A stretch of DNA of 64,000 nt, from the NCBI GenBank assembly GCA_964420075.1, contig CAYQRE010000022.1:5825-69824 (forward strand). Reading direction: 5' to 3'. Below, one piece after another: positions 4,492 through 41,107 of this stretch (positions are counted from its first letter, which is position 1; each line of letters starts with the position of its first letter). The translations under genes and the position numbers were made by a program. Source of the DNA: an uncultured Thermoanaerobaculia bacterium (lineage in GTDB: Bacteria > Acidobacteriota > Thermoanaerobaculia > Multivoradales > SZUA-115). The notes under the pieces are model-generated. The model had not been told where the DNA came from and made no database searches. It worked only from the letters and a program-made list of their open reading frames with translations.

Positions 4492-5796
4492 ATGGGGGGA
4501 CATCTGTCGCGCTGGCGCGTTCTCGAGCTCGTGGCGCAGGGAGAACCGACCCGGCGCGATCTCGAGGAGGTGCTAGAACATCTTTTCGAGGCGTGTGACG
4601 TCTGCCGGGCCGAGCTCGAGGCGGCCGCCGCGCTCGGGCAGCCTGGCGGCGCGGCGCCGCCGCGGCTGAACCTGCGCCGGCCGCAGCTGGCCGCCTGGGC
4701 GCGCTTCGCCCTGACCGCTCCCGGGGAGGCCGCGGAGATCCTCGCCCTGCCGGCGGCCGAGCGGCACCCGCGGATCTCACGCGCCTTCACCCGCTTCCGC
4801 AACCCGGTGCTGGCGGACCTCCTCCTCGAAGAGAGCCGGCGGCGGATGACCGACGACCCGGCGGAAGCCTACGACCTCGCCGAATGCGCCCAGGAGATTG
4901 CTCTGCGCCTGCCCGAGCGAGAAGTACCGCATGCCCTGGCGATCGCCTGTCTCGCCCGCGCCAACGCCTACCGTGCCAATGCGCTGCGCATCGGAGGACA
5001 GCTCACCCAGGCCGAGAGGCTGCTGCAGAACGCCGTCGCGCTGTTCGCCGAGCAAGGCACGGGAGATCCCCTCATCGAAGCGGAGCTCCTGGAGCTCTCC
5101 GCATCCCTTGCCCGCGGCCAGCGCAAGCTCGCGGACGCGGAGAAGTACCTCGCCGCCGCCGAGAGGTTGTACGTCGACTTCGACGAGCTCGTGGCCTGCA
5201 GCCGCGTCCAGGTCCTCAAGGGCGCCGTCCTCTTCGAGAACGGCGACCTCGAAGGCTCACTGGCGGCGGCGCTCACGGCTCTCGGCCGCCTCGACCCGGC
5301 CGCTGAGCCGTACCTCGCCCTCTGCGCAGCGCACAACGCCGCGGACTGTCTTGCCGAGCTCGGACGGGCCACAGAAGCGCGCCAGATGCTCCGCGACCAC
5401 GACGGTCTCTACGCCGCTTATCCCGGCCACGTGATCGCCGTTCAGCGTCTCTGGGTAGAGGGGAAGCTCGACCGTCTCGAAGAGCGCTGGGAGGCGGCGC
5501 AGGCCCGCTTCGTTGCCGTCAAGGAACGCTTCGAAGCGCTCGCTCGCCCCTATGATGCCGGGCTCGTCTCGGTGGATCTGGCCCACCTCCACCTAGCGCA
5601 GGGCAACCTCGGCGCGGTCCGCGAGCTGGCGGCGGAGATGGTCGAGGTCTTCCTCCAGGCCGACGTGCATCGCGAGGCGCTGGCTGCCGTCTACCTCTTC
5701 CAGGAATCGTTGCGGCAAGAGGCCGTCTCGCTGGTCGTGCTCGGGGAGCTCAAGGCCCGCCTCCGGCAGGTCCGTGGGCTGCGCGGGGACGGCTGA
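4492..5796 (+). CDS. hypothetical regulatory-type protein (Cys-containing N-terminus, helical-repeat body)
   Basis: GGAGGAGG RBS directly upstream of the ATG at 4492. N-terminus HLFEACDVCRAEL is zinc-finger/anti-sigma-like. Long Ala/Leu-rich, TPR-like helical repeats. No family assigned. Confidence 0.55.
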   Translation: MGGHLSRWRVLELVAQGEPTRRDLEEVLEHLFEACDVCRAELEAAAALGQPGGAAPPRLNLRRPQLAAWARFALTAPGEAAEILALPAAERHPRISRAFTRFRNPVLADLLLEESRRRMTDDPAEAYDLAECAQEIALRLPEREVPHALAIACLARANAYRANALRIGGQLTQAERLLQNAVALFAEQGTGDPLIEAELLELSASLARGQRKLADAEKYLAAAERLYVDFDELVACSRVQVLKGAVLFENGDLEGSLAAALTALGRLDPAAEPYLALCAAHNAADCLAELGRATEARQMLRDHDGLYAAYPGHVIAVQRLWVEGKLDRLEERWEAAQARFVAVKERFEALARPYDAGLVSVDLAHLHLAQGNLGAVRELAAEMVEVFLQADVHREALAAVYLFQESLRQEAVSLVVLGELKARLRQVRGLRGDG

Positions 5797-6939: not shown

Positions 6940-7086
6940 GCGCCCGCCGCGGCGTGGTCTGGCGGCCTCGCCACGAAAGACCGCGCCCGGCGCGGGCGTA
7001 TTGACTCCAGAGATCAGCAGAGATCAGCCCGAGGTCCGCCCGTGGCCGGCACGGCCGGCGCGAGCGGCAAGAAAGGCAGAGGGTCG

Positions 7087-7788
7087 ATGGAGATCACCCC
7101 GCAGCAGCGCACCTATGCCCGGCTCGCCGGGGCCCTGTTCCTCCTCAACTACCTCTTCCAGGGGATCGGCGACAGCGTCACCATCCTCAACCGGCGCGGC
7201 GAGACCTTCGCCGAGACGGCGCGCTGGGCAGCGGAGTCGGCCGGGCTCTACCGCCTGGCGTTGGTGCACGTCGGGGCCGCCTGGATCGCCATCGCCGTCC
7301 TGGCCTTCGCGCTCTACGCCGTCCTCGAAGGGGTGGACAGGCGTCTCGCGCAGCTCGCCCTCTGCCTGCGGCTGGGCGCCTCGTTCGTGGGGGCGGCGAG
7401 CTTGATGTTCCGCGTCGCGGAAGGGCGGCTTTACCAGACCTCGGCGACGGAAGGGCCCTTCAATTCCGAGCAGCTGCGGGCCTTGGTGGCGGTGGCCCAG
7501 CGTGCGGCCGGCGCCGGCGTCACCACCGCCTGGATGTTCATGGGCGCCGGCTCGGTCCTCTTCTTCCTCCTCTTCTGGCGCTCGCGCTACCTGCCACGAG
7601 CGCTGGCTGGCTGCGGCGTCGTCGCCTCCGCCCTGGTGATCGTGATGAGCGTCGCAATGTTCGTCGATCCCGCGCACACCAACGCCCTCAAGCTGGTGGG
7701 CGGACCGCTCTTCCTCACCGAGGTGGCGACGGCGCTCTGGCTCCTCGTCAAGGGCCTGCCCACGCCGGCAACGCCCACCGCGGCCTAG
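7087..7788 (+). CDS. DUF4386-like integral membrane protein
   Basis: Several predicted TM helices. C-terminal …ALWLLVKGL. It is a paralog of the minus-strand ORF 21774..22463, with a shared C-terminal LWLL[VA]KG motif. Confidence 0.6.
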   Translation: MEITPQQRTYARLAGALFLLNYLFQGIGDSVTILNRRGETFAETARWAAESAGLYRLALVHVGAAWIAIAVLAFALYAVLEGVDRRLAQLALCLRLGASFVGAASLMFRVAEGRLYQTSATEGPFNSEQLRALVAVAQRAAGAGVTTAWMFMGAGSVLFFLLFWRSRYLPRALAGCGVVASALVIVMSVAMFVDPAHTNALKLVGGPLFLTEVATALWLLVKGLPTPATPTAA

Positions 7789-7879
7789 CTCCGCCCTGTT
7801 TCGCCGTTCTGCCGGACGACGCCGGCCGGCTCTCGGCGGGCCGAGGGCCTTCGGCCGGTGGTCGGGGTCCTGCGAGCGT

Positions 7880-7943
7880 GCTGTCTACTGTCTGTCTAGA
7901 AGATAATATTGACATTAGATGGACGCATCGCTAGTCTCTCGCC
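7880..7943 (+). promoter_or_regulatory. AT-rich promoter/operator region upstream of the CarH-like regulator
   Basis: A local GC drop holding direct TGTCT repeats (ctgtctactgtctgtctag) followed by a TTGACA -35-like hexamer, just 5' of the regulator gene. Confidence 0.35.
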
Positions 7944-8864
7944 ATGGTCGAGCCCGCGGAGCAGGACGTCCCCCGCCATCCGATCGGCGTCGTCACGGCG
8001 CGGACGGGGCTCTCGAGCCATGTGCTGCGAGCCTGGGAGCGGCGTTACGGGGTGGTCCAGCCCGGCCGCGGCGCGACAGGCCGGCGGCTCTACTCTGATG
8101 CGGAAGTCGAGCGGCTGGCCCTCCTCTCGAGCGCGACGCGCTCGGGAAGGCCAGTGGCATCGGTGGTCTCGTTGGACACCAAGGCGCTGCGGGCGTTGGT
8201 CGCCGAGGACGCCGAGCACGCCCGCCAGGGGCCGCCGCCGGCGGCCTGGCACCGCGAGCAGGCGATGCTCGCCGCGCGTGCCCTGGAGCCCGAGCGTCTG
8301 GAGAGGCTCTTGCGGCGCGCGTTGCTGGCGTTGGGAACGGTCGGCTTTCTCGCCGACGTCCTGGCGCCACTGCTGGCCGAGATCGGCAGCGAATGGAACG
8401 CCGGGCAGATCGGGATCGCCGAGGAACACGCTGCAACGGCGACCATCTCGCAGCTGCTCGGTCGGCTGGTCCGCGACCTCGAGCTACCCGAGGCGCAGCC
8501 GCGCTTGTTGCTGGCCACGCCCCAGGGCGAGCGGCACTCGCTCGGTGCGCTGATGGCTGCCGCGGTCGCCGCGCATGACGGCTGGCGGGTGACCTGGCTG
8601 GGCGCGGACCTCCCCGCGGCCGAGATCGCCACGGCGGCGCGGCAGGGCCGCGCGCACGTCGTCGCGCTGAGCGTCGCCACGATGGCGGATGGCCTGGAGA
8701 CAGAGATCGCGGCCTTGCGCCGCGAGCTCGCCCCGCACGTTTGGGTCGTCGTCGGCGGGGCAGGGGCGGCGTCGCTCGGCGAGTCGGCGGGCCTCAGCTG
8801 CGTGCGGGACCTGGCTCACTGGCGGTCGTTGCTGCGCATGCACGCGGCGCGGGGTGGGGAGTAG
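7944..8864 (+). CDS. MerR-family transcriptional regulator with C-terminal cobalamin(B12)-binding domain (CarH/LitR-like light-responsive regulator)
   Basis: N-terminal MerR helix-turn-helix (IGVVTARTGLSSHVLRAWERRYGV). C-terminal B12-binding Rossmann-like region (…LLATPQGERHSLGALMAAAVAAHDGWRVTWLGADLP…). Confidence 0.8.
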   Translation: MVEPAEQDVPRHPIGVVTARTGLSSHVLRAWERRYGVVQPGRGATGRRLYSDAEVERLALLSSATRSGRPVASVVSLDTKALRALVAEDAEHARQGPPPAAWHREQAMLAARALEPERLERLLRRALLALGTVGFLADVLAPLLAEIGSEWNAGQIGIAEEHAATATISQLLGRLVRDLELPEAQPRLLLATPQGERHSLGALMAAAVAAHDGWRVTWLGADLPAAEIATAARQGRAHVVALSVATMADGLETEIAALRRELAPHVWVVVGGAGAASLGESAGLSCVRDLAHWRSLLRMHAARGGE

Positions 8865-8908
8865 GCGGTGTGGGGCGTCGCCCCGGTGCGGCGGGCGGAG
8901 GTGGCCTG

Positions 8909-10159
8909 ATGCGGATCGCGATCGTCGGCAGCGGCGTGGCCGGCCTGGTCGCCGCCCATCGCCTGCATCCCCACCATGCGGTGACGGTGTTCGAGGCGGA
9001 CGCCCGGCTCGGGGGCCACGTCCACACCTGGACGGTCCCTGCCGGCGGCCGGGACTATCAGGTCGATACCGGCTTCATCGTCTGCAACGAGCGCAACTAC
9101 CCGAACTTCCTCGCTCTCCTCGCCGAGCTGGGGGTGCGCACCGTGCCGAGCACGATGAGCTTCAGCGTGCGCCACGACGCCGCGCGCCTGGAGTACAACG
9201 GCTCGACCCTCCGCCAGCTGTTCATCCAGCCGAGCAACGTGCTGAGGCCGCGTTTCCTCCGCATGCTGATCGACGTGCTGCGTTTCAACCGCACGGCCGG
9301 GGCCACCGCGGCGGCCGGTGGGCCGGCCCTGACCCTCGGTGATCTGCTTGCCGGCGGCGGCTATTCGCAGGCCTTCCAGGACTGGTACCTGGTGCCGATG
9401 GGCTCGGCCATCTGGTCCCTGCCGCCGGCTCGTGTCCTCGCGATGCCGGCGCGCTTCTTCGTCGACTTCTTCGCCAACCACGGCCTGCTCACGGTCGACG
9501 ACCGCCCCCTCTGGCGGGTGGTGGAGGGCGGCTCGGCGCGCTACGTCGAGGCGCTCGTCGCCCCGTTCCGGGAGCGCATCCGGCTGCGCCATCGGGTACG
9601 CCGGGTGGCGCGCTTCAGCGGCCACGTCGAGGTGGACGGCGAGCCCTTCGATCGCGTGGTGCTGGCCTGCCACAGCGACCAGGCGCTCGCCGTCCTCGCC
9701 GATCCGTCCGCGGCCGAGCGGGAAGTCCTCGGCGCGCTGCCCTTCCAGGCGAACGACGTCGTCCTGCACACGGACACCTCGTTGCTGCCGCGCCACCGCG
9801 GCGCCTGGGGAGCGTGGAACTACCGGGTCGCGGCCGATCCGGCGGCCCCGGTCGTGGTCACCTACAACATGAACCAGCTGCAATCGCTCGACGCCCCGGA
9901 GACCTTCTGCGTCACGCTCAACGCTGGCGACGCGATCGATCCGGCGCGGGTGCTCGGGCGGGTGACTTACCACCATCCGGTGGTCACCCTGGCGGGGGTG
10001 GCGGCGCGGGCACGGCGCGGCGAGGTGAGCGGCCCAAACCGCACGCACTACTGCGGCGCCTATTGGGGCAACGGCTTCCACGAGGACGGCGTGGTGAGCG
10101 GGCTCGCGGTGGTGGACGAGATCGCGGCGGCAGCCCAGCTGCAGGCGGCGGTGGCGTGA
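8909..10159 (+). CDS. FAD/NAD(P)-binding oxidoreductase (amine-oxidase-like; UfaD-like fatty-acid desaturase candidate)
   Basis: Dinucleotide-binding motif at the chosen start (MRIAIVGSGVAGLVAAHRL). It heads the operon conserved with DUF1365 and CFA-synthase-like genes. Confidence 0.8.
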   Translation: MRIAIVGSGVAGLVAAHRLHPHHAVTVFEADARLGGHVHTWTVPAGGRDYQVDTGFIVCNERNYPNFLALLAELGVRTVPSTMSFSVRHDAARLEYNGSTLRQLFIQPSNVLRPRFLRMLIDVLRFNRTAGATAAAGGPALTLGDLLAGGGYSQAFQDWYLVPMGSAIWSLPPARVLAMPARFFVDFFANHGLLTVDDRPLWRVVEGGSARYVEALVAPFRERIRLRHRVRRVARFSGHVEVDGEPFDRVVLACHSDQALAVLADPSAAEREVLGALPFQANDVVLHTDTSLLPRHRGAWGAWNYRVAADPAAPVVVTYNMNQLQSLDAPETFCVTLNAGDAIDPARVLGRVTYHHPVVTLAGVAARARRGEVSGPNRTHYCGAYWGNGFHEDGVVSGLAVVDEIAAAAQLQAAVA

Positions 10160-10929
10160 ACAGCTGCGTCTACCAGGGGACAGTGCGCCACCGGCGGCGC
10201 GCACCTTTGCGGCACGCCTTCCGCTATCGGCTGTTCATGCTCTACCTCGACCTCGATGAGCTGCCGGAGGCCTTCACCGGGCGCTGGTTGTGGTCCGCCC
10301 GCCACCCGGCCCCCGCCTGGTTCCGCCGCGCCGACTACCTGGGTGATCCCGCCGTGCCGCTCGCCGTGGCGGTGCGCGACCTCGTCGCCGCTCGCACCGG
10401 CCGCCGCCCGGCCGGGCCGATTCGCCTGCTCACGCACCTGCGCTACTGGGGCTACCGGCAGAACCCGGTGAGCTTCTACTACTGCTTCGCCGCTGCCGGC
10501 GAGGGGCTCGAAGCCGTCGTCGCCGAGGTCACCAACACGCCGTGGGGCGAGCGGCACGCCTACGTGGTGCCCGTGGACGGGCCGGCGCGGGTGCACCGGG
10601 CGGTCCTCGACAAGGTCTTCCACGTCTCGCCCTTCATGCCGATGGACCAGCGCTACGCCTGGAGCTTCACCACGCCGGGAGAACGCCTCCACTTCCACAT
10701 GCAGAGCCGCCGCGGCGGCGAGCCTGTGTTCGACGCCACGCTCTCCCTCATCCGCTCGCCGCTCAGCGGCCCGGTGCTCGCCCGCTGCCTGGCACGGCAC
10801 CCCTGGATGACGGCTGCGGTCGTCGCCGGCATCTACTGGCAGGCGCTGCGCCTCTGGCTGCGCCGGGCGCCCTTCCACCCGCACCCCAACCCAAGGAGGC
10901 GCGATGCCACTCCTGTCGTCACTCGCTAG
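10156..10929 (+). CDS. DUF1365 family protein (UfaO-like)
   Basis: GTG start overlapping the upstream stop (GTGA). Conserved DUF1365 N-terminus (…VYQGTVRHRR…FRYRLFMLYLDLDEL…). Confidence 0.7.
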   Translation: MNSCVYQGTVRHRRRAPLRHAFRYRLFMLYLDLDELPEAFTGRWLWSARHPAPAWFRRADYLGDPAVPLAVAVRDLVAARTGRRPAGPIRLLTHLRYWGYRQNPVSFYYCFAAAGEGLEAVVAEVTNTPWGERHAYVVPVDGPARVHRAVLDKVFHVSPFMPMDQRYAWSFTTPGERLHFHMQSRRGGEPVFDATLSLIRSPLSGPVLARCLARHPWMTAAVVAGIYWQALRLWLRRAPFHPHPNPRRRDATPVVTR

Positions 10930-12151
10930 GCGCGCCATCCTCGGGCGCCTGGCGCGGCTGCAACATGGTCGCCTGCTCGTCCGCGAAGGCGGCGAGGAGA
11001 TCACCGCTGGGGACCCGGCGGCGCCGCCGGTGATCATCACGGTGCACGATCCGCGTTTTCACGCTGCCGTCGCCTTCGGTGGCGCCGTCGGGGCCGGCGA
11101 GGCCTACGCGGCCGGCTGGTGGTCGAGTGACGATCTGACCGGGATCGTCCGCCTGCTGCTGCGCAACCGTGAGGCCCTGGAAGGCCTCGAGCGAGGATCG
11201 GCGTCGCTTGCCGGCTGGTTGCGCCGAGTCGCCCACGCCCTCAACGCCAACTCGCGGCGCGGGGCCAGGCGCAACATCCGCGAGCATTACGACCTCGGCA
11301 ACGACTTCTTCCGCCTCTTCCTCGACGAGACTCTGACCTACTCCTGCGCCCTCTTCGAGCGTCCGGTCGCGACGCTGACCGAGGCCTCGCTCGCCAAGTA
11401 CGAGCGGATCGCGCAGCTCCTCGACCTCAGGCCGACAGACCACTTGCTCGAGATCGGCACCGGCTGGGGCGGCTTCGCGCTGCATGCGGCGGCGCGCTAC
11501 GGCTGCCGGGTGACCACCACGACGATCTCGCCGGCACAGCTCGCGGTGGCCCGCGAGCGGGTGGCGGCGGCCGGGGTCGGCGACCGCGTGACACTGCTGG
11601 GCGAGGACTATCGTGACCTCAGCGGTACCTACGACAAGCTCGCCTCGATCGAGATGATCGAGGCAGTGGGGCACGAGTACTACGCGACCTACTACCAGCA
11701 ATGCGCCCGGCTGCTGGTACCGCGCGGCCGCGCCGTGATCCAGGCGATCACCATCCCGGACGAGCGCTACGAGGCGGCGCGCCGCGAGGTCGACTTCATC
11801 AAGCGCTACATCTTCCCCGGCGGCTGCATTCCGTCGCGGGGCGTGCTGGCCGCCGCTGCGGCGACGACCGACCTCGCGCTCGTGCAGGCCGACGAGATCG
11901 GCCTGCACTACGCCGAGACCCTGCGGCGGTGGCGGGCCAACCTGCTGGCGCGTCGCCAGGAGATCAAGGCGCTCGGCTACGACGAGCGCTTCCTGCGCCT
12001 CTGGGAGTTCTACTTCTGCTACTGCGAAGGTGCTTTCCTCGAACGGGCGATCGGCGCGGCGCAGCTGCTCTATGCGCGGGCAGCGGCCGAGCTGGTGCCG
12101 CCACTGCCGGTGGCAGCCGTGCCGCGGGCGCCCGCGGAGCTGGCGGCATGA
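10904..12151 (+). CDS. cyclopropane-fatty-acyl-phospholipid synthase family SAM-dependent methyltransferase
   Basis: SAM-binding motif (LLEIGTGWGGFALHAA) and the CFA-synthase C-terminal region (…FLRLWEFYFCYCEGAF…). Confidence 0.8.
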   Translation: MPLLSSLARRAILGRLARLQHGRLLVREGGEEITAGDPAAPPVIITVHDPRFHAAVAFGGAVGAGEAYAAGWWSSDDLTGIVRLLLRNREALEGLERGSASLAGWLRRVAHALNANSRRGARRNIREHYDLGNDFFRLFLDETLTYSCALFERPVATLTEASLAKYERIAQLLDLRPTDHLLEIGTGWGGFALHAAARYGCRVTTTTISPAQLAVARERVAAAGVGDRVTLLGEDYRDLSGTYDKLASIEMIEAVGHEYYATYYQQCARLLVPRGRAVIQAITIPDERYEAARREVDFIKRYIFPGGCIPSRGVLAAAAATTDLALVQADEIGLHYAETLRRWRANLLARRQEIKALGYDERFLRLWEFYFCYCEGAFLERAIGAAQLLYARAAAELVPPLPVAAVPRAPAELAA

Positions 12152-12918
12152 CGGCTGCGCTGCTCTTCGTGCTGGCAGGGTTCGCGCTGCAGGTCGGCCT
12201 GTGGGCCGGGCAGCAGCGCAGCGGCAACGCCGCCTCCGCCGACCTCGGCTGGACGATCCTGGTGGCCGGCGGCGCGCTAGGGGCGGCGCTGGTGAGTGAC
12301 GGCGAGGTGCCGCGGCGCCTCCTCGTCGCGGGGTTGGCGATCGTCTGGGCCCTGCGCCTCGGGGCCTACCTGCTGCGCGACCGCGTTCGTCAGGCCGCGG
12401 AGGAGGATGGCCGCTATCGTAGCCTCCGCGAACACTGGGGGAGCGCTGCCAGCCGCAACTTCCTCTGGCTCTACCTGGCGCAAGTGCCGGTCGCGGCGCT
12501 CTTCGTCACCCCGCTCGCCTTCGCCATGCGCGGTGGGGAGCTGGATGCCTGGGCCGCCGCTGGCGTCGCCGTCTGGCTGGTCGCCACCGCGGGCGAGTGG
12601 CTCGCCGACCGCCAGCTCGCCCGCTTCCGGGCCACACCTGGCAACCGTGGCCAGGTCTGCCGCGCCGGGCTCTGGCACTATTCCAGGCACCCCAACTACT
12701 TCTGCGAGTGGTTGCACTGGTGGGCCTACGTGCTGATCGGCCATGGCCAGCCGCTGACCTTCCTCGGCCCCCTGGTGATGCTGCTCTTCTTGTTCCGCTT
12801 GACGGGCATCCCGTACACCGAGCGCCAGGCGCTAAGGAGCCGCGGCGAGGCCTATCGCGCCTACCAGCGGTCGACGAGCGCGTTCATCCCCTGGCCGCCG
12901 AAGCGGGAAGCGGAATGA
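12148..12918 (+). CDS. DUF1295 family membrane protein (steroid-5α-reductase/ICMT-like)
   Basis: ATG overlaps the upstream stop (ATGA). Hydrophobic, with the C-terminal …GLWHYSRHPNYFCEW… motif typical of DUF1295. Confidence 0.7.
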   Translation: MTAALLFVLAGFALQVGLWAGQQRSGNAASADLGWTILVAGGALGAALVSDGEVPRRLLVAGLAIVWALRLGAYLLRDRVRQAAEEDGRYRSLREHWGSAASRNFLWLYLAQVPVAALFVTPLAFAMRGGELDAWAAAGVAVWLVATAGEWLADRQLARFRATPGNRGQVCRAGLWHYSRHPNYFCEWLHWWAYVLIGHGQPLTFLGPLVMLLFLFRLTGIPYTERQALRSRGEAYRAYQRSTSAFIPWPPKREAE

Positions 12919-13955
12919 GCCTCGACCTCGGCCTAGCGCTCGCCGAGCGGGGCCGCGTCCCCACGCCGCTCCTGCGTTGGGCGATGCGGCGGCTCTGCGC
13001 CGCACGCCTCGGCGAGGTGCGGGCAGCCACCGACGAGCGGCCCTTCTTCACGCGCCTGGCGGCCGCGCGGATCGCCGAAGTCCCGGAGCTCGCCAACGCC
13101 CAGCACTACGAGCTGCCGAGCGAGTTCTTTGCCCTCGTTCTCGGCCCGCAGCGGAAGTACTCCTGCGCCCTCTGGCCGGCGGCCGGCGGCAGCCTCGACG
13201 AGGCGGAGGAGGCGATGTTGGCGTTGACGTGCGAGCGCGCCGGGCTGGCGGACGGCCAGGAGATCTTGGAGCTCGGCTGCGGTTGGGGGTCGCTCTCGCT
13301 CGCCATGGCGCGCCGCTATCCCGCGTCACGGATCGTCGCTGTCTCGAACTCGGCCACGCAGCGCGCCTTCATCACCTCCCAGGGCCTGCCCAACCTCGAG
13401 GTGCGCACGGCCGACATGAACGATTTCGACCCCGGCCAAGCTTTCGATCGCATCGTCAGCGTCGAGATGTTCGAGCACATGCGAGACTGGCCGCGCCTGC
13501 TCGCGCGGGTCGCGGCTTGGCTGCGCGCGGACGGCCGGCTCTTCCTCCACGTCTTCTGCCACGCCACGCACGCCTACCCCTTCGAGGTCGAAGGCTCCGG
13601 CAACTGGATGGGCCGGTACTTCTTCAGCGGTGGCATCATGCCCAGCTACGGGCTCCTGGCCGAGGCGGCACCGGCGAGCCTGCAGCCGGTCGCCGATTGG
13701 TGGCTCGACGGCAGCCACTACCAGCGCACCGCCGCGGCTTGGCGCCACAACCTCGAGGCGCGTCGCGCGGCGGTGATGCGGGTGCTCCGGGAGCACTACG
13801 GGACTGCCGCCTCCCTGTGGTTCGAGCGCTGGCGCCTCTTCTTCCTGGCCTGCGAGGAGCTCTTCGGCTACGGGGGCGGCCGGCAATGGGGCGTGGGCCA
13901 TTACCTCTTGATGCCATCACCAAGGGCCCGCCCGGGCCGAACGGAGGTCGCCTGA
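12915..13955 (+). CDS. SAM-dependent methyltransferase, CFA-synthase-like (second paralog)
   Basis: ATGA overlap with the previous gene. SAM motif (ILELGCGWGSLSLAMA). C-terminal …WRLFFLACEELFGY… typical of the CFA-synthase family. Confidence 0.8.
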   Translation: MSLDLGLALAERGRVPTPLLRWAMRRLCAARLGEVRAATDERPFFTRLAAARIAEVPELANAQHYELPSEFFALVLGPQRKYSCALWPAAGGSLDEAEEAMLALTCERAGLADGQEILELGCGWGSLSLAMARRYPASRIVAVSNSATQRAFITSQGLPNLEVRTADMNDFDPGQAFDRIVSVEMFEHMRDWPRLLARVAAWLRADGRLFLHVFCHATHAYPFEVEGSGNWMGRYFFSGGIMPSYGLLAEAAPASLQPVADWWLDGSHYQRTAAAWRHNLEARRAAVMRVLREHYGTAASLWFERWRLFFLACEELFGYGGGRQWGVGHYLLMPSPRARPGRTEVA

Positions 13956-13957
13956 CG

Positions 13958-14359
13958 GTGAGCGAGTTCCTCAAGATGTACGCGGTCGGCGTCGTCTCCT
14001 GCTTCGCCCTCGATCTGCTGTGGCTCGGCGTGGTCGCCAAGGGCTTCTACCAACGTCACCTCGGCCTTCTGCTGCGCCCGGACGTCCAGTGGCTGCCGGC
14101 CGTGCTGTTCTACCTGCTCTACGTGGCGGCCCTCGTCGTCTTCGTGGCGGCGCCGGCCGTCGAGCGGCAGTCGCTGGGGCGTGCCGTGGGCCTCGGTGCC
14201 TTCTTCGGCCTGGCCGCCTACGCGGCCTTCGATCTCACCGGCCTGGCGCTGCTCAGGGACTTCTCCCTCGCCGCGGCGCTCGCCGACCTCGCCTGGGGTG
14301 CCTTCCTCTCCGCCACCGTGAGCACCCTCATCGTCCTCGCCGCACGGGCCTGGGCCTGA
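13958..14359 (+). CDS. DUF2177-like small membrane protein
   Basis: GTG at 13958 preceded by GGAGGT; the alternative start is ATG 13976. Four predicted TM helices (…FYLLYVAALVVFVAAPAVERQS…). Confidence 0.55.
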   Translation: MSEFLKMYAVGVVSCFALDLLWLGVVAKGFYQRHLGLLLRPDVQWLPAVLFYLLYVAALVVFVAAPAVERQSLGRAVGLGAFFGLAAYAAFDLTGLALLRDFSLAAALADLAWGAFLSATVSTLIVLAARAWA

Positions 14360-14523
14360 AGCTCAGCGGTTGACCGCGAGGGGGGCACGAGCGCAGGATC
14401 GGCTCGATGGGCGCCGATTCGACGGGCTCGGTGCTGCTCGGGTCTCGCGGCGAAGGAAGTTCGCTCCGCCGTCATCCAATCTCCACGGCCAGGCGGCAGG
14501 ATCGCTGACGGTCCACCGCCGGC

Positions 14524-16134
14524 TTGGAGATCGCGACGATGACGTCCCTCTCGACAGCAGTCCACTCCGCGATCGCGGGCTCTCGCCGCGCCGGCCCTTG
14601 GCGCCTACCCACGGGCACGGCCCTGGCCGGGCTGACTGCCGTTCTGGTCCTGGCCTTCGCCTTCCAGGGGACGCGCGGCATCTGGGAGCCGGACGAGGGC
14701 TTCTACGCCAACGTCGCCGTCGCCATGATGAAGAGCGGCGATTGGCTGGTCCCCCGCCTCAACGGTGAGCCCTTCCTCGACAAGCCGCCGCTGCTCTACT
14801 GGGCGACGGCGGCGGCGATGCGCTGGGGCGGGGTCGATGAGTGGGCCGCCCGGCTGCCCCAGGGGCTGTGGTACTTCGGCAGCGTCGTCCTGGTCGCGGG
14901 GCTGGCCGGGCGGTGGTGGGGGAGGCGGGCAGGCGTCGTCGCGGGCGGCGTCTACGCCACCACGCTGCTGCCGTTCTTCGCTGCCAACATCTTGACGCCG
15001 GACACGCCGCTCGCCTTCGCCGTGGCGCTCGCCTACTTCTTGTTGGCCGGCCTGCACGCGGCCTCGAGTTGGCTGGCGCGCCTGGTCCGCGGGACCTTCC
15101 TCGGCCTGGCGATCGGCCTCGGCCTGCTCGCCAAGGGGCCGGCGATGCTGGTCTTCGTGGCCCCGTTCGCCGTCATTGCCGTGCTGCGCCGGCGCTCGCT
15201 CGCCGGGCTGTTCGACCTTGGGCTGCTCACCGCCGGGCTCGTCGCCCTGGTGGTTGCGGCCCCCTGGTACGCCGCCATCGCCCGTGCCTTGCCCGGGGCC
15301 GGTGGCTACCTCCTCGATAGCCAGGTGCTCGGCCGGCTGGTGAACGCGGACTTCAGCCGCAACGCCGGCCTCTTCGACGGCTTCGCCGTGTACCTGCCGG
15401 TCCTCCTTGTCGGCGGCTTGCCCTGGAGCGTCGTCTGGCTGCGCCAGCTCGCCGCGGCGCTGCGCCGCGGGTGGCGCGGTCGGCGACTGGCGGAATGGCG
15501 GCCCGCCTGGCCCAGCGCGGGGCCCGAGACCCTCCTCCTCGTCGGCATCGCGCTGCCCCTCGCCGTGCTGCTCGCCGCCCGCTCGCGGCTGCCGCTCTAC
15601 GTGCTGCCCCTCTTCGTGCCGCTCTCCCTGCTCACCGCGCGGCTCCTGGAGGAGCGTCTCGCCGGTACCTCTCCCGCCGGCGGCCGCCGCTGGGTGGGCT
15701 GGGGGCTGGTCGGCTGGGTGCTCCTGCTCCTGGCCCTCAAGGCTGCCGCCGGCTGGCTGCCCTACGGTCTCGACGCCCGGCGCCTCGCCGAAGAGCTCAC
15801 CAGCGCCGGGGTGAGGCCCGATCGTCTGCTCGTGATCGTCAACAGCCGCCGCAACGGCCTGGCGTTCTACGGCTTCCAGAACCTCGAAGCGGTCTCCACC
15901 CTCGAGGTCCCGTACCCCTTCTTCGCCGAGACCGAGAGGCTGAAGGTCGAAGCGGAGGAGATCCGTAGCGGCGAGGCGGCGCCGTTGCTGTTGGTGCCGA
16001 AGCGGACGACACCGCGGGTGGAGGCGGCGATGCGCCGCGTCGGGGTGCCGATGCAGGAGCGCGAGCTGGGTTTCGATCTCTCGTTGCTCTCCCCCGAGAC
16101 CGGCGGCGCTCCGCCGGGGCCGCCTCCGAGCTGA
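14524..16134 (+). CDS. GT39/GT83-family glycosyltransferase (ArnT/PMT-like integral membrane protein)
   Basis: N-terminal TM region with the conserved DEGFYAN… and …FLDKPPLLYW… motifs of ArnT/PMT-type transferases. Confidence 0.75.
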   Translation: MEIATMTSLSTAVHSAIAGSRRAGPWRLPTGTALAGLTAVLVLAFAFQGTRGIWEPDEGFYANVAVAMMKSGDWLVPRLNGEPFLDKPPLLYWATAAAMRWGGVDEWAARLPQGLWYFGSVVLVAGLAGRWWGRRAGVVAGGVYATTLLPFFAANILTPDTPLAFAVALAYFLLAGLHAASSWLARLVRGTFLGLAIGLGLLAKGPAMLVFVAPFAVIAVLRRRSLAGLFDLGLLTAGLVALVVAAPWYAAIARALPGAGGYLLDSQVLGRLVNADFSRNAGLFDGFAVYLPVLLVGGLPWSVVWLRQLAAALRRGWRGRRLAEWRPAWPSAGPETLLLVGIALPLAVLLAARSRLPLYVLPLFVPLSLLTARLLEERLAGTSPAGGRRWVGWGLVGWVLLLLALKAAAGWLPYGLDARRLAEELTSAGVRPDRLLVIVNSRRNGLAFYGFQNLEAVSTLEVPYPFFAETERLKVEAEEIRSGEAAPLLLVPKRTTPRVEAAMRRVGVPMQERELGFDLSLLSPETGGAPPGPPPS

Positions 16135-16198
16135 GTCGGCTGGCGCGTTGCGGGCGTACCGCTGCCCGCGACTGCGGGTTCGGAGGTATTCTCCAGAG

Positions 16199-17635
16199 AT
16201 GGTGCCGCGCACCACCGCCTGTCTCGTCGCCGCTGGCCTCCTCACCGCCTGCATCCACGAAGCACCCAAGCCCCTCGACCTCACGGCCACGGCGGCGCGG
16301 CTTGCCGCGCGGAGCCTGGTGAGCCCCGAGGTCGCAGCCCTCAGCGCGCGGCTTGGTCGCCAGGCCCCCGCGGTGGGGGACGCCTGGGGCCCCGACGACC
16401 TGGTGGTCGCCGCCTGGGCGCTGCGCGCGGAGGTGGCGGCGGGCGCGCTGGAGGTCGCGAAGGCCCGCGGTGCCGAGGAGGGCGCGGGCCGCCGGCAGCG
16501 CCCGGCACTCTCCCTGACGCCTGAGTTTGCGACCCACCTCGAGGGAGCGGCCAACCCGTGGACGATCGCCCTCGCCTTGGCCTGGCCGTTCGAGCTGGGG
16601 GGCAAGCGAGAGGCCCGGCAGAACGAGGCTCGGGCGGCGACCGCCGTCGCCCTCGGGCACTTCGCGGAGACGCTCTGGGCCGTGCGCCAGGAGGTCGTCG
16701 GGGCCCGCTTGGAGCTCGAGATCGCCGCCCGCGAGCTGGCCCTCGCCCACGATGAGGTCGCGGCGCGGCGAGAGCTGGCCGCCTGGGTGGAGACCCTCCT
16801 CCGCCTCGGCGCCGCCTCGCAACCGGAGCGCCAGAGCGCCCTTCTCGAGCTGGCGAAGGCCGAGGCGGCACGGCGCGCCGCGGCGACCGCCGAGCTTGCG
16901 GCGCGCGGCCGCCTGGCGACGGCCCTGGCGCTGCCGCTTCCCAGCCTCGACGGCCTGAGCCTGGCCGAGCTCGACCTGGCAGCCTTGCCAGCGGCAGCCG
17001 AGCTCGCGGAGGCAGACCTCGCCGCCGAGGCGGTGGCCAACCGCCTCGACCTCCACCGCGCGGTGGCCGAGTACGCGGTCGCCGAGGCTGCCTTGGCGAG
17101 CGAGCTCGCCCGCCAGGTGCCGGACCTCACCCTCGGCCCCGGGCTGACCTTCGATCAAGACCAGCGCAAGCTGGTCTTCGGTGCCGGGCTCACCCTGCCG
17201 GACCCCGTCGCGCAACGGCTCGCCATCCGCCAGGCGCTGCTCGGCCGCGAGCAGGTCGGCCTTGCCGTCGAGCGGGTGCAGGCCGCCGCTCTCGCCGCGA
17301 CGGCCGCCGCCAGCGCCGGCTATGCCGCCGCCCAGGAGGCGGTCGCCGAGGCCACGGCGGCGCTCGAAGAAGGGCGCCAGGGTGTGGCCCTGGCGGAGAA
17401 GCGCCTGGCCCTCGGCGCGGGCGATCGCGGTGAGGTGCTGACGGCGCGGGCGCTCGCCGGTGAGCAGCAGCGGGCCTTGCTCACCGCCCAGCGCGCGGCC
17501 GTCGACGCTGTCATGGTGCTCGAAGCGGCAGTCGAGCGCCCCGTCTGGCCGCCGTCGACGCTCGATCTCACGGCCGCCGCCACTCGCCTCGGGGGCCCGG
17601 CGCCGCGGGCGACGGAGGGAGGGACCAAGCCTTGA
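16199..17635 (+). CDS. TolC-family outer-membrane efflux protein (CzcC-like), lipoprotein
   Basis: GGAGGT RBS. Lipobox (LLTAC). Long Ala/Leu coiled-coil repeats as in outer-membrane factors. It is the first gene of an OMF-adaptor-RND operon. Confidence 0.7.
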   Translation: MVPRTTACLVAAGLLTACIHEAPKPLDLTATAARLAARSLVSPEVAALSARLGRQAPAVGDAWGPDDLVVAAWALRAEVAAGALEVAKARGAEEGAGRRQRPALSLTPEFATHLEGAANPWTIALALAWPFELGGKREARQNEARAATAVALGHFAETLWAVRQEVVGARLELEIAARELALAHDEVAARRELAAWVETLLRLGAASQPERQSALLELAKAEAARRAAATAELAARGRLATALALPLPSLDGLSLAELDLAALPAAAELAEADLAAEAVANRLDLHRAVAEYAVAEAALASELARQVPDLTLGPGLTFDQDQRKLVFGAGLTLPDPVAQRLAIRQALLGREQVGLAVERVQAAALAATAAASAGYAAAQEAVAEATAALEEGRQGVALAEKRLALGAGDRGEVLTARALAGEQQRALLTAQRAAVDAVMVLEAAVERPVWPPSTLDLTAAATRLGGPAPRATEGGTKP

Positions 17636-18642
17636 TGCTCGAACCGCGATCCCGGGCGCTGGCGCCCTGGTACCACCACGTTGCCCGTTGGCTCCTCACT
17701 GCCGTCCTCGCGGCGGCGCTGGCCTGCTCTTCGCCCCCGCCGTCACCGGCTCCCGGCAGCCCCGAGAGCGCAGCCGAGGCGGCCCCGGGAGTGGCTGCCG
17801 AGCCGGCCCTGCGCGAGCGGCTGGGTATCGCGCTGGAGCCCCTGGCCGCGGCGAGCCTTGCTCCTAGCCTCGAGGGCTTCGGCAGCGTGCTGGCGGCCGA
17901 GCCGCTGGCCGATCTCGACGCCGAGCTGGCCACCGCGCACACGGCCCTCGCCGCCAGCCAGGCGAGCCGCGAGCGGGCCGCTGCCCTCTACGAGGCGGAC
18001 CAGGCCGGGTCGCTCGCCAACCTCGAGGCCGCGCGCCGCCAGGAGGCGACCGATGCTGCCCAGCTCGAGCGCGCCGAGCGGCGGTTGGCCCTCGCCTGGG
18101 GGCCTGCCTCGCCGTTTCGCGACGAGGCAGAGCGCCGGCGCTGGCTCGCGCGGCTGACCGCGGGGCGGGCCGTCCTCGCGCGCCTGCAGCTGCCGCCCGG
18201 GGTGCCGGCCGGGGCCCTACACTTCGCCGTCGAGCCCCTCTCTGGTCAAGCGTCCTGGACGGCTGAGGCGGTGTGGCCGGCACCGGCCGAGGCGGCGACT
18301 GCCTTGCTGCCCGGACCGAGCTACCTTGCCCTGCTGGCGGGGCCGCACCTGCCCCAGCCGGGCGAGCGCCTGCGGGTGCGGGCGAGCGGCGGCCAGGCGG
18401 CGAGCGGCGTGCTGGTGCCCGAGACGGCGGTGGTGATCGCCGAGGGCGCCGCCTGGGCCTACGTCGAGGTAGGCGGGTGCTGGCTGCGCCGGCCGGTCGA
18501 CCTCGCCCAGCCGCTGCCCGGCGGCTACTTCCAGGCCGCGGGCTTCGCGGTGGGTGAGCCGGTCGTCGGCCGCGGGGCCGGCCTGTTGCTCGCCCTGGAG
18601 GCCGGCGCCGCTCAGCCCGAGAGCGGTGGCGAGGAGGACTGA
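17635..18642 (+). CDS. efflux RND periplasmic adaptor subunit (CzcB-like, atypical Ala-rich)
   Basis: Overlaps the upstream stop. Lipoprotein-like N-terminus (LAACSSPPP). Coiled-coil hairpin region. C-terminal beta-rich domain (…RVRASGGQAASGVLVPETAVVIAEGAAWAYVEV…). Confidence 0.6.
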   Translation: MLEPRSRALAPWYHHVARWLLTAVLAAALACSSPPPSPAPGSPESAAEAAPGVAAEPALRERLGIALEPLAAASLAPSLEGFGSVLAAEPLADLDAELATAHTALAASQASRERAAALYEADQAGSLANLEAARRQEATDAAQLERAERRLALAWGPASPFRDEAERRRWLARLTAGRAVLARLQLPPGVPAGALHFAVEPLSGQASWTAEAVWPAPAEAATALLPGPSYLALLAGPHLPQPGERLRVRASGGQAASGVLVPETAVVIAEGAAWAYVEVGGCWLRRPVDLAQPLPGGYFQAAGFAVGEPVVGRGAGLLLALEAGAAQPESGGEED

Positions 18643-18645
18643 GCC

Positions 18646-21600
18646 GTGTTCGGCCGCCTCGTCGAGCTCAGCCTGCGCCGGCCTCTGACCGTCGCCCTCC
18701 TCGCCGGCCTCGGCCTCGTCTTCGGGGCTCGCGAGGCGCTGCGCGCGCCCCTCGACGTGCTCCCCGAGTTCGTGCCGCCGCAGGTCTCGATCCAGACCGA
18801 GGCGCCAGGCCTCTCGTCGCAGCAGGTGGAGGAGCTGGTGACGCGCCCCGTCGAGGCGGCGGTCAACGGCGCGCCCGGCCTCGACTCCCTGCGCTCGGAG
18901 TCGATCCCCGGCCTCTCGGTGGTCAACCTCGGCTTCTCGCCCTCGGCCGACGTGCACGCCGCCCGCCAAGGAGTGGCGGAGCGCCTGGCGACGGTCGCCG
19001 GCAACCTACCGGTCGGCGTCGGTACGCCCAAGCTCTCGCCGCTGACCTCGAGCACGATGGACCTGCTCAAGGTGGGGCTGGTGTCGAAGACCCTCGATCC
19101 CTTTGCCTTGCGCGACGTGGCCGACTGGGAGCTGCGGCCCCGCCTGCTCGCGGTGCCCGGCGTGGCGCGGATCACGGTCTTCGGCGGCGAGGGGCGGCAG
19201 CTGCAGGTGCGCCCGCGGCCGGAGCGCCTGGCAGCCTACGGCCTCACTCTCGCCGATCTCGCCGCCGCCGCCCGCGGTGCCCTCGCCCTCGAAGGGGCCG
19301 GCTTCGTCGACCTCGCCGCCCAGCAGGTGGTGATCGAGACGCCAACACCGCGAGTCGATCCAGCCGCCCTGGCCGCTTCCGTCGTCGCCGTGCGCGGTGG
19401 TGGCAGCGTTCGCCTGGGCGAGGTCGCCACGGTGGAGCTGGGGGCGGCCCTCAAGGCCGGCGACGCCCGCATCCAGGGCCAGCCGGGGGTGCTGCTGACG
19501 ATGTCCGGGCAGTTCGGCGCCAACACCCTCGCCACCACCCGCGCCATCGAGGCGGCGCTCGCCGAGATGGGACCGTCGCTCGCCGCCCGCGGTATCGAGG
19601 TCTACCCGGCGCTGCACCGGCCGGCGAACTTCATCGAGCGCGCTCTCGACAGCCTCGGTCATGCCCTCGCCCTGGGCGCCGTGCTGATCCTCCTCGTCCT
19701 CCTCCTCTTCCTGCGCGACCCGCGGACGGCGTTCATCTCCTTCCTCACCATCCCGCTGTCGCTGCTTGCTGCCGTGGCCGTGCTCGACGGCCTCGGTGAG
19801 ACCCTCAACACGATGGCGCTCGGCGGCTTCGCCGTCGCCCTCGGCGTGCTGGTCGACGACGCCATCATCGACATCGAGAACATCGTCCGCCGGCTGCGCG
19901 AGAACGCCCAGCTGCCGGCACCACGGCCGCGGCTCGCCGTGATGCGCGACGCCTCGCTCGAGATCCGCGGCTCGGTGCTCTACGCCACGGTCGTCGTCCT
20001 GCTCGTCTTCCTGCCGGTGCTCCTCGCGGCCGGCGTCCAGGGCCGCTTCCTGCGCCCCCTGGCCCTCGCCTTCGGCCTCGGCGTGCTGGCCTCGCTGCTG
20101 GTGGCCTTCACGGTGACACCGGCCCTCTGCGCACTCCTGCTGCCGGCGGCCGGTGAGCACCGCCAGCCGCGCTGGATCGCTGCCCTGGCCCGTCTGCAGG
20201 ACCGCGCCCTGGGTTGGGTGGAGCGCCACTTCGCGGCCAGCGTGGCCCTTCTCCTGCTGCTCCTGGCGGGCGCCGCCGCCTGGCTGCCCTTCCTCGGCAG
20301 CGAGCTGATGCCGGCCTTCCGCGAGGGCCACTTCGTGCTTCAGGTGTCGAGCCGCGCCCCCGGTACCTCGCTCGCCGAGATGCTCGCCCTGGGCGAGCGG
20401 GTGAGCCGCGACGTCCTGGCCCTGCCGTTCATCGCCACCATCGAGCAGCAGGTTGGCCGGGCCGAGCTGGGGGAAGACACCTGGGGCCCCCACCGCAGCG
20501 AGTTCCACGTCGAGCTCAAGGCGGACGCCACGGTCGACGAGCGCGCTGCGCAGGAAGCGCTGCGCCAGGTGCTCGCCGCCTACCCGGCGGCGCGCAGCGA
20601 GGTGATGACCTTCCTCGGCGACCGCATCAGCGAAAGCCTCACGGGCGAGATGGCACAGGTGGTGATCAACCTCTTCGGCGACCGCCTCGACGACCTCGAC
20701 CGCGCCGGCCAAGCGGTGGCGGCGGCGATCGCCGGCACGCCGGGCGTCGTCGAGCTACAGCTCAAGCGCGAGAGCGGCGCGCCGTCGGTGGCCGTGGAGC
20801 TCGACCGTGAGGCCCTGGCGGCCTACGGCGTGCGCAGCGAGGAGGTGCTGCAGGCGGTGGCCACGGCCTACGCCGGACAGTCGCTGGGCGAGGCCTACGA
20901 CGGCGCCCGCACGGTCGAGGTGGTGCTCGTCCAGCCACCCGAGGTCCGCAGCAGCCTCGCTGCCCTCGCCGCCCTCCCCGTCGACACCCCCGGCGGGCCC
21001 GTCGCCCTCGGCAAGCTGGCGCGGCTCGAGCCCCGCGACGGCCGCTTTACCATCCAGCACGAGGGGGGCCGGCGGCGGGTGGCAGTGACCTTCAACGTCG
21101 AAGACCGCTCCCTGCAGGCGACGGTCGGCGAAGTGCAGCGCCGCATCGCCAGCCGGGTGCGGCTGCCGGCCGGCGTCGTCCTCGCCTTTGCCGGCGAGGC
21201 GGAGGCCGAGCGGCAGACCCGCCAGCAGCTGCTGCTCGACTCGGCCCTCGCCGCGGCGCTGATCGCCCTCGTGCTGGCCCTCGCCTTCCGCCGCCGGCGC
21301 TTTCCCTGGCTGGTGATGGCGGGCGGCCCGTTCTGCCTGCTGGGGAGCATCTTCGCTATCGGTCTCTCGGGGGTCGGCCTGTCGCTGGGCGCCCTCGTCG
21401 GCCTGGTGACGGTGTTCGGCGTCGGCGCCCGCAACTCGATCCTGCTGCTCGCCCACTACGAGCACCTGCTCGATCACGAGGGGGCCAGCTGGAGCCGCGA
21501 GACCCTGCGGCGGGGTGCCCGCGAGCGGCTGGTGCCGATCCTCATGACGGCCCTGGTGACCGCCCTCGGCCTGGTGCCGCTGGCCCTCGGCCTGCACCGG

Positions 21601-22463: not shown

Positions 22464-22591
22464 CTTCTGCTCCTTGCGTCAGCGGTCGGCGGACGACCGC
22501 TGGTCGGGTGAGTTCTCTAGAATCGGCTCCAGGGCCGAGGATGCAGAGGTTGCTCTCTCTCAAGACGCCGCAGCCGGGGCGAGATTGCAGC

Positions 22592-28444: not shown

Positions 28445-28681
28445 TCGACTCAGTGAGAGGCCGCCGGCGGCGCCATTCCTTCGCGGACCTTCCTGATGGG
28501 CCTGGTCGATGGCCTCCTGGAAGCCCGTGGAGCTGGTCTGGCCCCCTCGCGCGGCAGCGGTTTGGGCGAAGAGTAACTCCAGGCGAAGGAAGGGCCCCGG
28601 CCCCCACCTCCAACCCTACGTCGCGGCCGCCGCGCCGCCGCTCACTGCGGCGGCCGCGGCTGACCGAGAGGAGGGCGGTGA

Positions 28682-30182: not shown

Positions 30183-30352
30183 GGCGCCGCAGCCCGCAGC
30201 ACCCTCCTCTCCTGCCCGGGCGGGCTCGCGGTTCCGATCGCGGCCCCGCCCGGCACTCTCTGGACCCGCAATCTGGAACGGCCGGCCGCAAGCTCGGCGT
30301 ACCGAGTTCGCGCGGCGCGCATTAGGATCCACTTTGGAATAATCTTATTAGC

Positions 30353-41086: not shown

Positions 41087-41107
41087 GCTCCGGCCCGAGG
41101 GCGGACG

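Follow-up and report, generated by a model that had tools for sequence, protein, structure and literature searches.

A putative B12-dependent photoreceptor gene as first cistron of a candidate furan-fatty-acid operon

The sequence considered here, called the window below, is a stretch of 64,000 nucleotides from an uncultured Thermoanaerobaculia bacterium (assembly GCA_964420075.1, contig CAYQRE010000022.1, positions 5,825 to 69,824 of the forward strand). Positions 7882-14359 of the window probably constitute a single operon, negatively autoregulated and light-inducible, for furan or methylated fatty acids. Its first gene encodes a regulator of the CarH/LitR class I type, predicted to be an adenosylcobalamin (AdoCbl, or AdoB12) photoreceptor, and six lipid-modification genes follow on the same strand. 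A functional tie between this B12-type regulator and a ufaD/ufaO-like operon, proposed in an initial annotation of the sequence, is supported by the signature residues of the regulator, by synteny within its clade, by the operator lying on its promoter, and by an operator copy placed before ufaD in another locus (L056).

Gene models were based on frame analysis using G+C content at third codon positions, on inspection of start codons and on Pfam matches, with starts refined afterwards; the local G+C of the window is about 73%. The regulator, the lipid genes and the promoter elements lie where the initial annotation had put them. Its description of a seven-gene operon stands if the regulator is counted, only six genes lying downstream of the regulator. 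The genes of the unit are as follows (aa, amino acids; RBS, ribosome-binding site; SAM, S-adenosylmethionine).

7944-8864, + strand: CarH/LitR class I-type regulator (306 aa; MerR_1, 14-72; B12-binding_2, 110-175; B12-binding, 187-276)
8865-8908, + strand: intercistronic gap of 44 bp with the RBS-like sequence GGAGGTGG (GGAGG)
8909-10159, + strand: UfaD-like FAD/NAD-binding oxidoreductase (416 aa; Amino_oxidase and NAD_binding_8)
10156-10929, + strand: DUF1365 protein of the UfaO family (257 aa; PF07103, 282 bits, full length)
10904-12151, + strand: CMAS-family SAM-dependent methyltransferase 1, candidate UfaM-like (415 aa; PF02353, 278 bits)
12148-12918, + strand: DUF1295 membrane protein (256 aa; PF06966, 205 bits; weaker Steroid_dh, ICMT and PEMT matches)
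12915-13955, + strand: CMAS-family methyltransferase 2, candidate FufM-like (346 aa; PF02353, 151 bits)
13958-14359, + strand: DUF2177 small membrane protein, last conserved cistron (133 aa; PF09945, 127 bits)

The regulator and its linkage to the lipid genes

The best matches of the regulator in the PDB are the Thermus thermophilus LitR/CarH structures 3whp and 5c8d (E about 1e-29, residues 13-276), and the CarH cobalamin-binding domain 5c8a is matched as well (E 5e-20). The protein carries a MerR-type winged helix (PF13411, residues 14-72, E 1.8e-11; aligned from residue 13 of 3whp and residue 28 of 5c8d), a four-helix bundle (PF02607, 110-175) and a Rossmann B12-binding module (PF02310, 187-276). 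In the alignment with the T. thermophilus structures, its Wx9EH motif reads EIGSEWNAGQIGIAEEHAAT / EWNAGQIGIAEEH, and its ExHxxG motif, which carries the lower axial cobalt ligand histidine, reads GERHSLG within PQGERHSLGA. The corresponding residues are W151, E161, H162, E196, H198 and G201; W151, E161, H162, H198 and G201 are invariant across an alignment of 26 homologues, and E196 is shared by 21 of these (Q in 4, D in 1). With the MerR helix-turn-helix (HTH), both B12 domains and both motifs intact, the initial annotation of a CarH/LitR-like B12-type regulator directly upstream of the lipid genes is confirmed. The protein is predicted from these features to act as an AdoB12 photoreceptor, which would bind AdoCbl and be inactivated by its photolysis.

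Homologous loci (numbered L001 and so on) were found by exact-protein look-ups of regulator homologues (53-63% identical) and by a scan of one genome per species. The closest relatives of the regulator occur in Gemmatimonadales and in Gemmatimonadota metagenome-assembled genomes (MAGs); taken with the high G+C and with outer-membrane efflux genes in the vicinity, they would most likely place the window on a Gemmatimonadota chromosome. A ufa-like cluster follows the regulator on the same strand in the window, L001, L004, L005, L081, L082/L083, L084, L085, L086, L087 and the P0023 contig. Neighbour joining of 87 regulators groups the 12 cluster-linked ones in a single Gemmatimonadales clade (bootstrap 87/100), and besides the window 10 of 11 sampled clade members, together with one related contig, have the regulator as first cistron of such a cluster. 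Flanking genes are unlike in every locus, the conserved part being the module of regulator and ufa-like cluster. DUF2177 closes the cluster in L082, L084, L085 and L086, and the gene that follows it is different at each locus.

Regulator and six lipid genes apparently form one autoregulated transcription unit, a reading drawn from gene spacing and from the absence of internal signals. Within 7944-14359, four junctions overlap (by the four bases GTGA or ATGA and, in one case, by 26 bp), one is of 2 bp, and the gap between regulator and oxidoreductase genes is of 44 bp. The regulator stop codon is 4 bp from the next start, or overlaps it, in 5/8 orthologous loci with called genes (L081, L082, L085, L086 and L087; for instance stop/start at 10921/10926 in L081, 9732/9737 in L082 and 10936/10933 in L086), the distance being 92-139 bp in the other three. 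These five loci leave no room for an internal promoter, which argues for co-transcription. A scan of 7000-15000 gave no terminator-like site within the 7944-14359 unit; the sole match in the scanned region (7383-7401) lies inside a DUF4386 gene and is irrelevant here.

The initial annotation had also implied a separate control region for the lipid genes at 8865-8909. This idea was abandoned: the 44-bp gap contains the RBS-like GGAGG only, with no match to the operator matrix (see below) and none to a promoter in the scan, and five of the eight orthologous loci have 4 bp or an overlap at this place. It is accordingly very improbable that the regulator autoregulates only itself while the six genes are driven from 8865-8908, possibly by another factor such as the extracytoplasmic function (ECF) sigma factor encoded at 27833-28615. 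The 44-bp length of the gap, unlike the tight junctions of the five orthologues, and the presence of an ECF sigma gene in the window would suit such an arrangement; no terminator follows the regulator, however, and that sigma gene, the only one of its kind in the window, lies 13 kb away and is unpaired, with no ChrR homologue among the annotated window genes.

Between the regulator and ufaD, the majority of orthologues have an additional gene, for a membrane fatty-acid desaturase (PF00487, with a weak match to a DesA-family NCBIfam model) (L081, 10926-11843; L082, 9737-10624; L085, 10926-11807; L086, 10933-11847; L087, 10930-11841; also L001, L004 and L005). This desaturase may provide a monoene substrate. 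Lipocalin genes were observed divergent to the regulator in L001, L002, L082 and L086.

Operator and promoter architecture

The regulator gene is preceded by the 44-bp element TGTCTA-N5-TGTCTA-N10-TTGACA-N5-TGGACG (7882-7925), in which four hexamer sites can be distinguished.

7882-7887, + strand: operator site A, TGTCTA (-27 relative to TTGACA), reverse complement of the CarH core TnnACA
7893-7898, + strand: operator site B, TGTCTA (-16), 11 bp from A; consensus TGTcTA
7909-7914, + strand: operator site C, the -35 hexamer TTGACA (position 0), within the 11-bp repeat AATATTGACAT, which fits nnnnTnnACAn
7920-7925, + strand: operator site D, TGGACG (+11), a slightly degenerate TnnACA in the promoter spacer, 11 bp after C
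7932-7937, + strand: candidate -10 hexamer TAGTCT, after a 17-bp spacer, with the ATG 6 nt further on

Twelve upstream regions were aligned on their common TTGACA, giving the operator consensus tTGTctAg..taTGTcTAa..Aatta.CTTGACAttt..TagACA...a.CTAt.cT. The -35 hexamer is TTGACA in 11 of these 12 orthologous promoters and TTGACT in L004; site D has the consensus TagACA and reads TGGACA in L001. The promoter of the window is sigma-70-like (TTGACA-N17-TAGTCT), and a TAnnnT-like -10 hexamer occurs 16-18 bp past the -35 in 10/12 loci, the exceptions being GATAAT (L085) and CATCAT (L002). The start codon comes 6-8 nt past the -10 in all 12, without a Shine-Dalgarno sequence, which implies a leaderless regulator mRNA; in L081, L082, L085, L086 and L087, the start derived from the promoter coincides with the independently called gene start. 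Judged by this spacing, the regulator transcript of the window is probably leaderless too.

The 64-kb window contains a single instance of TGTCTA-N5-TGTCTA-N10-TTGACA, at 7882-7914, and 100 dinucleotide shuffles gave no match to it, even with 3 mismatches allowed. The TGTCT repeats and the TTGACA element noticed earlier in the promoter of the regulator are thus present and not due to chance, and they form part of a conserved four-site operator. A weight matrix was also built from 11 orthologous loci, the window being left out. With this matrix, the window operator scores 38.3 bits, and the opposite strand at the same coordinates scores 32.6 bits because the operator is symmetric. The next-best matches in the window are 30325-30370 (24.7 bits) and 38863-38908 (20.0 bits). 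Both were rejected as regulon members, being AT-rich TTGACA spots in which neither TGTnnA nor TnnACA sites occur; each is probably a strong promoter, the latter for a tail-sheath gene.

The symmetry is two-fold: the hexamer pairs A/B and C/D are arranged about a 10-bp centre, A/B being the C/D motif on the other strand. Of the 75 paralogous regulators for which the preceding sequence was available, 27 have the same operator before them, at a median of 36 bp from the start codon; nearly all of these 27 loci belong to Gemmatimonadota, two (L016 and L057) being in MAGs placed in other phyla. The matrix of the paralogue sites correlates with its own reverse complement (r = 0.76, off-centre controls being about 0), which is only partly independent evidence of symmetry since the matrix search imposes the pattern.

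CarH binds the repeat 5'-nnnnTnnACAn-3' with an 11-bp spacing, and in Thermus and myxobacteria the -35 element lies inside one repeat (PMC9304148). Sites C and D fit this repeat and spacing, with the -35 in site C, while A and B are inverted. The optimal 17-bp spacer, together with sites that cover the -35 and the spacer, argues for steric repression; activation by spacer distortion, in the manner of MerR regulators, was rejected on the same grounds.

Independent evidence for operator control of the ufa genes comes from L056, a Gemmatimonas-like locus in which 7 kb separate the regulator gene and the cluster. Two operator copies are found there (13514-13559, - strand, and 5707-5752), one before the regulator and one before the unlinked ufaD operon. 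The latter is a full operator-promoter on the minus strand, directly upstream of the ufaD start, and reads TTGTCAAG..GTCCAG-N10-TTGACA-N5-TAGACA, then 17 bp, then TATCGT; the 5' untranslated region is here of about 45 nt, in place of a leaderless start. In L026 and L045, an operator occupies the interval between the regulator gene and an operon, divergent from it, that begins fasciclin-(desaturase)-ufaD.

Several fasciclin genes were noted beside CarH-type operators or regulators in Gemmatimonadota (L003, 232-834, - strand; L026, 9245-9751, - strand; L045, 10498-11205, - strand; L089, 8732-9052; L090, 2258-2764, - strand), and in L026 and L045 fasciclin is the first gene of the divergent desaturase and ufa operon. 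It was also considered whether ufa operons are headed by the paralogous regulators of Gemmatimonadota, which are 40-50% identical; this was rejected, as most of them do not head one. Three paralogue neighbourhoods that were checked contain, respectively, a PadR gene, fasciclin and PAS kinase genes, and an NmrA/DUF2867 gene; the few paralogues with a ufa cluster nearby have it in divergent orientation or at a distance.

Lipid genes, likely product and surrounding region

In Rhodobacter sphaeroides and Rhodopseudomonas palustris, furan fatty acids are produced by UfaM (a SAM-dependent methylase), then UfaD (a desaturase, being a NAD/FAD-binding oxidoreductase of phytoene-desaturase-like type), then UfaO (a DUF1365 protein, O2-dependent), the three together giving the furan fatty acid with one methyl group; a further methyl group is introduced by FufM, which has only 26% identity to UfaM (PMC7380195). 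Compounds that mark this pathway are 11-methyl-12-trans-18:1, a methylated diene and the 9M5 and 9D5 furan fatty acids. The order ufaD-ufaO-CMAS is common to RSP1091-1089 and RPA2571-2569 (PMC7380195), and the window trio oxidoreductase-DUF1365-CMAS follows it. The initial annotation stated that the operon mirrors that of Rhodobacter; this holds for the UfaD-UfaO-CMAS order but not as an exact correspondence, DUF1295, the second methylase and DUF2177 not being linked to furan-fatty-acid synthesis in the Rhodobacter paper (PMC7380195).

As stand-ins for the characterised UfaM, UfaD, UfaO and FufM, the analysis took annotated plasmid clusters of proteobacteria, and the window enzymes were assigned at family level. 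Over its full length, the UfaD-like protein (Amino_oxidase and NAD_binding_8) is 46% identical (E 4e-104) to its counterpart, an FAD oxidoreductase, in an Azospirillum DUF1365 cluster that adjoins ChrR and sigmaE genes, and the stop codon of the window gene overlaps the DUF1365 start. The DUF1365 protein matches PF07103 over its full length, which is the UfaO family as defined in PMC7380195, and is 35-47% identical to the annotated DUF1365 proteins of the proteobacterial clusters. Methyltransferases 1 and 2 share 28% identity. Both are below the equivalog cut-offs for cyclopropane fatty acid (CFA) synthase: the first scores 280.9 against 600 (NF053839) and 255.3 against 400 (NF008686), the second 144.1 against 400. 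The DUF1295 protein is related, by its weaker Pfam matches, to steroid 5-alpha-reductase, ICMT and PEMT.

The best inference for the product, given these families and their order, is furan or methylated-diene fatty acids. A serious, though clearly less likely, alternative is that regulation is as proposed and the product is not a furan: cyclopropane, mid-chain methyl or methylene, or conjugated diene fatty acids, or the modification of another lipid class. In favour of this, the acyl chains of Gemmatimonadota are unlike 18:1, on which the proteobacterial pathway acts. Such a product would agree with the family-level assignment of the enzymes and with the lack of a known role for DUF1295 and DUF2177, as well as with the dispensability of RSP1087-1089 for furan fatty acids in R. 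sphaeroides (PMC7380195). It is countered by the gene order shared with RSP1091-1089 and RPA2571-2569, by the identity of the oxidoreductase to that of a proteobacterial cluster, by the scores of both methylases below the CFA-synthase cut-offs, and by the extra desaturase of the orthologous operons, which could supply the monoene. Furan or methylated-diene fatty acids were consequently retained as the preferred product.

Around the operon, two DUF4386 paralogues flank the region (7042-7788, + strand, and 21774-22478, - strand; about 38% identity over the C-termini), of which the first immediately precedes the operator and points the same way as the regulator gene. On the other side, a PMT_2 glycosyltransferase gene (14539-16134) comes next after DUF2177, at a distance of 180 bp, and is not conserved beside the cluster elsewhere. 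Just downstream of it, at 16148-21750, is a resistance-nodulation-division (RND) efflux operon with an OEP outer-membrane factor, an AcrB-type pump and a 336-aa protein that has no Pfam match and is probably the membrane fusion protein.

The remainder of the window includes a cluster resembling an extracellular contractile injection system (38917-64000), also with several large open reading frames without Pfam match. Features of this part are as follows.

31617-39014, - strand: 2465-aa protein with 17 DUF11 repeats, DUF7507 and CARDB, adjoining the injection-system-like cluster; probably a surface protein or adhesin
38917-40563: phage tail sheath
41087-41809: T4_baseplate protein
42537-43991: Pvc16_N
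58444-63067: two DUF6519 proteins

G+C falls locally at 30-32 kb and again at 38-40 kb, and 30325-30370 and 38863-38908 are AT-rich islands with a perfect TTGACA amid 73% G+C.

Proposed mechanism and relation to known systems

The mechanism proposed for the operon is derived from the domains, operator geometry and synteny described above. In the dark, the AdoCbl-loaded regulator (7944-8864) would oligomerise on the 44-bp operator, with its two TGTnnA and two TnnACA sites 11 bp apart within each pair, and occupation of sites C and D, over the -35 and the 17-bp spacer, would exclude RNA polymerase. Near-UV to green light would photolyse the Co-C bond, so that the oligomer would dissociate and the promoter open. 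A leaderless polycistronic mRNA would then direct synthesis of the regulator, the UfaD-like desaturase, the UfaO-family DUF1365 protein, the two CMAS methylases, DUF1295 and DUF2177. The acyl chains of phospholipids would undergo methylation, then desaturation, then O2-dependent formation of the furan ring, with a possible second methylation, and the resulting furan or methylated fatty acids may scavenge radicals and singlet oxygen.

Several observations weigh against this mechanism or parts of it. In the regulator, His132 of T. thermophilus CarH, which as upper axial ligand completes the bis-His adduct of the light state, is replaced by Asn (Asn152, window 8397-8399), the window protein being the only one with Asn among the 26 homologues (His 18, Arg 4, Glu 2, Gln 1); the photoproduct chemistry may thus differ. 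The NCBIfam model TransRegCarH (NF052513) is the best model at 132.6 bits and its equivalog cut-off of 400 is not reached, so that the regulator was considered as a distant member of the CarH subfamily and not as an equivalog. A simple sigma-70 scan of 7000-15000 calls no promoter, and the -10 TAGTCT is weak, with 3/6 TATAAT positions. The operator is symmetric, with two inverted and two direct sites, whereas characterised CarH operators have three or four tandem repeats in the same orientation (PMC9304148); since the solved Thermus complex has three such tandem repeats, the binding mode expected here is not covered by it.

Other such observations concern the genes under control. Within the regulator clade, a DUF1295 gene (7964-8752) directly behind the regulator is all that L002 keeps, transporter genes of MacB/FtsX type coming next, and L003 is without ufa genes in its 2.6 kb of downstream sequence; the layout of L002 suggests that DUF1295 can act, or be light-regulated, apart from the rest of the cluster. 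The window is without the desaturase gene of most orthologues, as are L084 and the P0023 contig, and has either lost it or never had it. The two methylases are placed, as candidate UfaM and FufM counterparts, by CMAS family only, and R. sphaeroides can make furan fatty acids without RSP1089, the CMAS gene inside its operon (PMC7380195).

The substitution at the His132 equivalent also bears on another explanation, namely that the regulator mainly senses B12 availability, AdoCbl being a nutritional corepressor and the operon following cobalamin status. CarH-type repression needs AdoCbl, so that scarcity would derepress as well (PMC9304148). A Rfam scan of the whole window gave no matches, hence no cobalamin riboswitch nearby, and there are likewise no cob genes nearby to indicate supply. 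The Wx9EH and His signature, however, defines the photoactive AdoCbl-binding module of CarH, the operon has no B12-dependent enzyme, and the cluster is induced by light or singlet oxygen in Pseudomonas, Vibrio and Rhodobacter. Nutritional sensing was therefore regarded as improbable, and light sensing through AdoCbl was kept as the preferred function of the regulator.

Among known systems, the class I CarH regulators are the nearest to the predicted photoreceptor. T. thermophilus CarH/LitR (5C8D/3WHP) and the CarH proteins of Myxococcus xanthus and Bacillus megaterium have the same three-domain layout with Wx9EH and ExHxxG, and the operators have in common the 11-bp-spaced TnnACA hexamers, the -35 TTGACA in one repeat and, as predicted for the window, repression in the dark. 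In contrast to CarH, which targets carotenoid genes, the window regulator would target a lipid-modification operon of which it is itself the first cistron, on an mRNA predicted to be leaderless; operator arrangement, the Asn residue and the score of about 133 bits against the CarH model are further differences.

A second comparison is with the class II LitR proteins (PplR1, PmlR1, PmlR2) of Pseudomonas putida and P. mendocina, for which a light-inducible cluster with an FAD oxidoreductase gene, ufaM and hypothetical genes, and the site T(G/A)TACA-N12-TGTA(C/T)A, are described (PMC9758184, and Sumi et al. 2020 as cited there). These MerR-type LitR/CarH-family repressors resemble the window system in the light-inducible lipid cluster and in TGTACA-type hexamers overlapping the -35. 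They differ from it in that they have no Rossmann B12 domain and light is sensed indirectly via a short LOV anti-repressor, whereas the sensor predicted in the window is the AdoB12-bound regulator itself; the Pseudomonas cluster also has phrB.

The lipid genes themselves are closest in arrangement to RSP1091-1087 with UfaM of R. sphaeroides and RPA2571-2569 with FufM of R. palustris: FAD desaturase, DUF1365 and CMAS families occur in the same order, and a second, divergent CMAS methylase has its parallel in FufM. Rhodobacter uses sigmaE-ChrR and senses singlet-oxygen damage, while a photoreceptor repressor is predicted in the window, and DUF1295, DUF2177 and the desaturase of the orthologues are extra cistrons with no role in that work (PMC7380195). 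A Salinivibrio plasmid cluster (MerR-phrB-SDR-FAD oxidoreductase-DUF1365-CFA-synthase) also has a MerR gene just upstream in the same orientation, but its product combines MerR with MlrA_helical, has no B12-binding domains, and has only the HTH in common with the window regulator (41% identity over 64 aa). In the blue-light MerR/ChrR response of Vibrio cholerae, blue light induces a CFA-synthase-like gene (PMC5241685).

A literature search, with incomplete coverage, gave no report of a B12-type CarH/LitR acting on this cluster or occurring in Gemmatimonadota, nor of a link of CarH or B12 to DUF1365, cyclopropane or furan lipid genes. For this lipid cluster, light control by B12-independent LitR (Pseudomonas) and by sigmaE-ChrR (Rhodobacter) has been described before, and the novelty lies in how two known systems are connected. 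Carotenoid genes are almost the only established targets of CarH photoreceptors; if the reading proposed here is true, the CarH regulon extends to membrane fatty-acid remodelling, and one lipid cluster of the photo-oxidative stress response would be under three sensors across phyla, namely sigmaE-ChrR, a B12-less LitR with LOV, and an AdoB12 photoreceptor. Candidates for unexplained steps in furan-lipid metabolism would then be DUF1295, DUF2177, the second methylase, the linked desaturase, fasciclin and lipocalin.

Gemmatimonadota is a phylum that includes phototrophs. With more doubt than confidence, we suggest that its CarH-type regulators may bind DNA in a geometry new to the family, an AdoB12-held oligomer placing all four DNA-binding domains on a symmetric 44-bp four-site operator; in one subfamily, the photoreceptor gene would have become the first and leaderless cistron of an operon for furan fatty acids. 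If this holds, the membrane antioxidant lipids would be under anticipatory light control that is independent of damage. The symmetric operator, which is the least expected element, could serve to probe DNA recognition by the CarH oligomer, and the whole would amount to a compact, self-contained light-inducible cassette from a little-studied phylum, made up of a 44-bp operator, a leaderless regulator and cargo genes.

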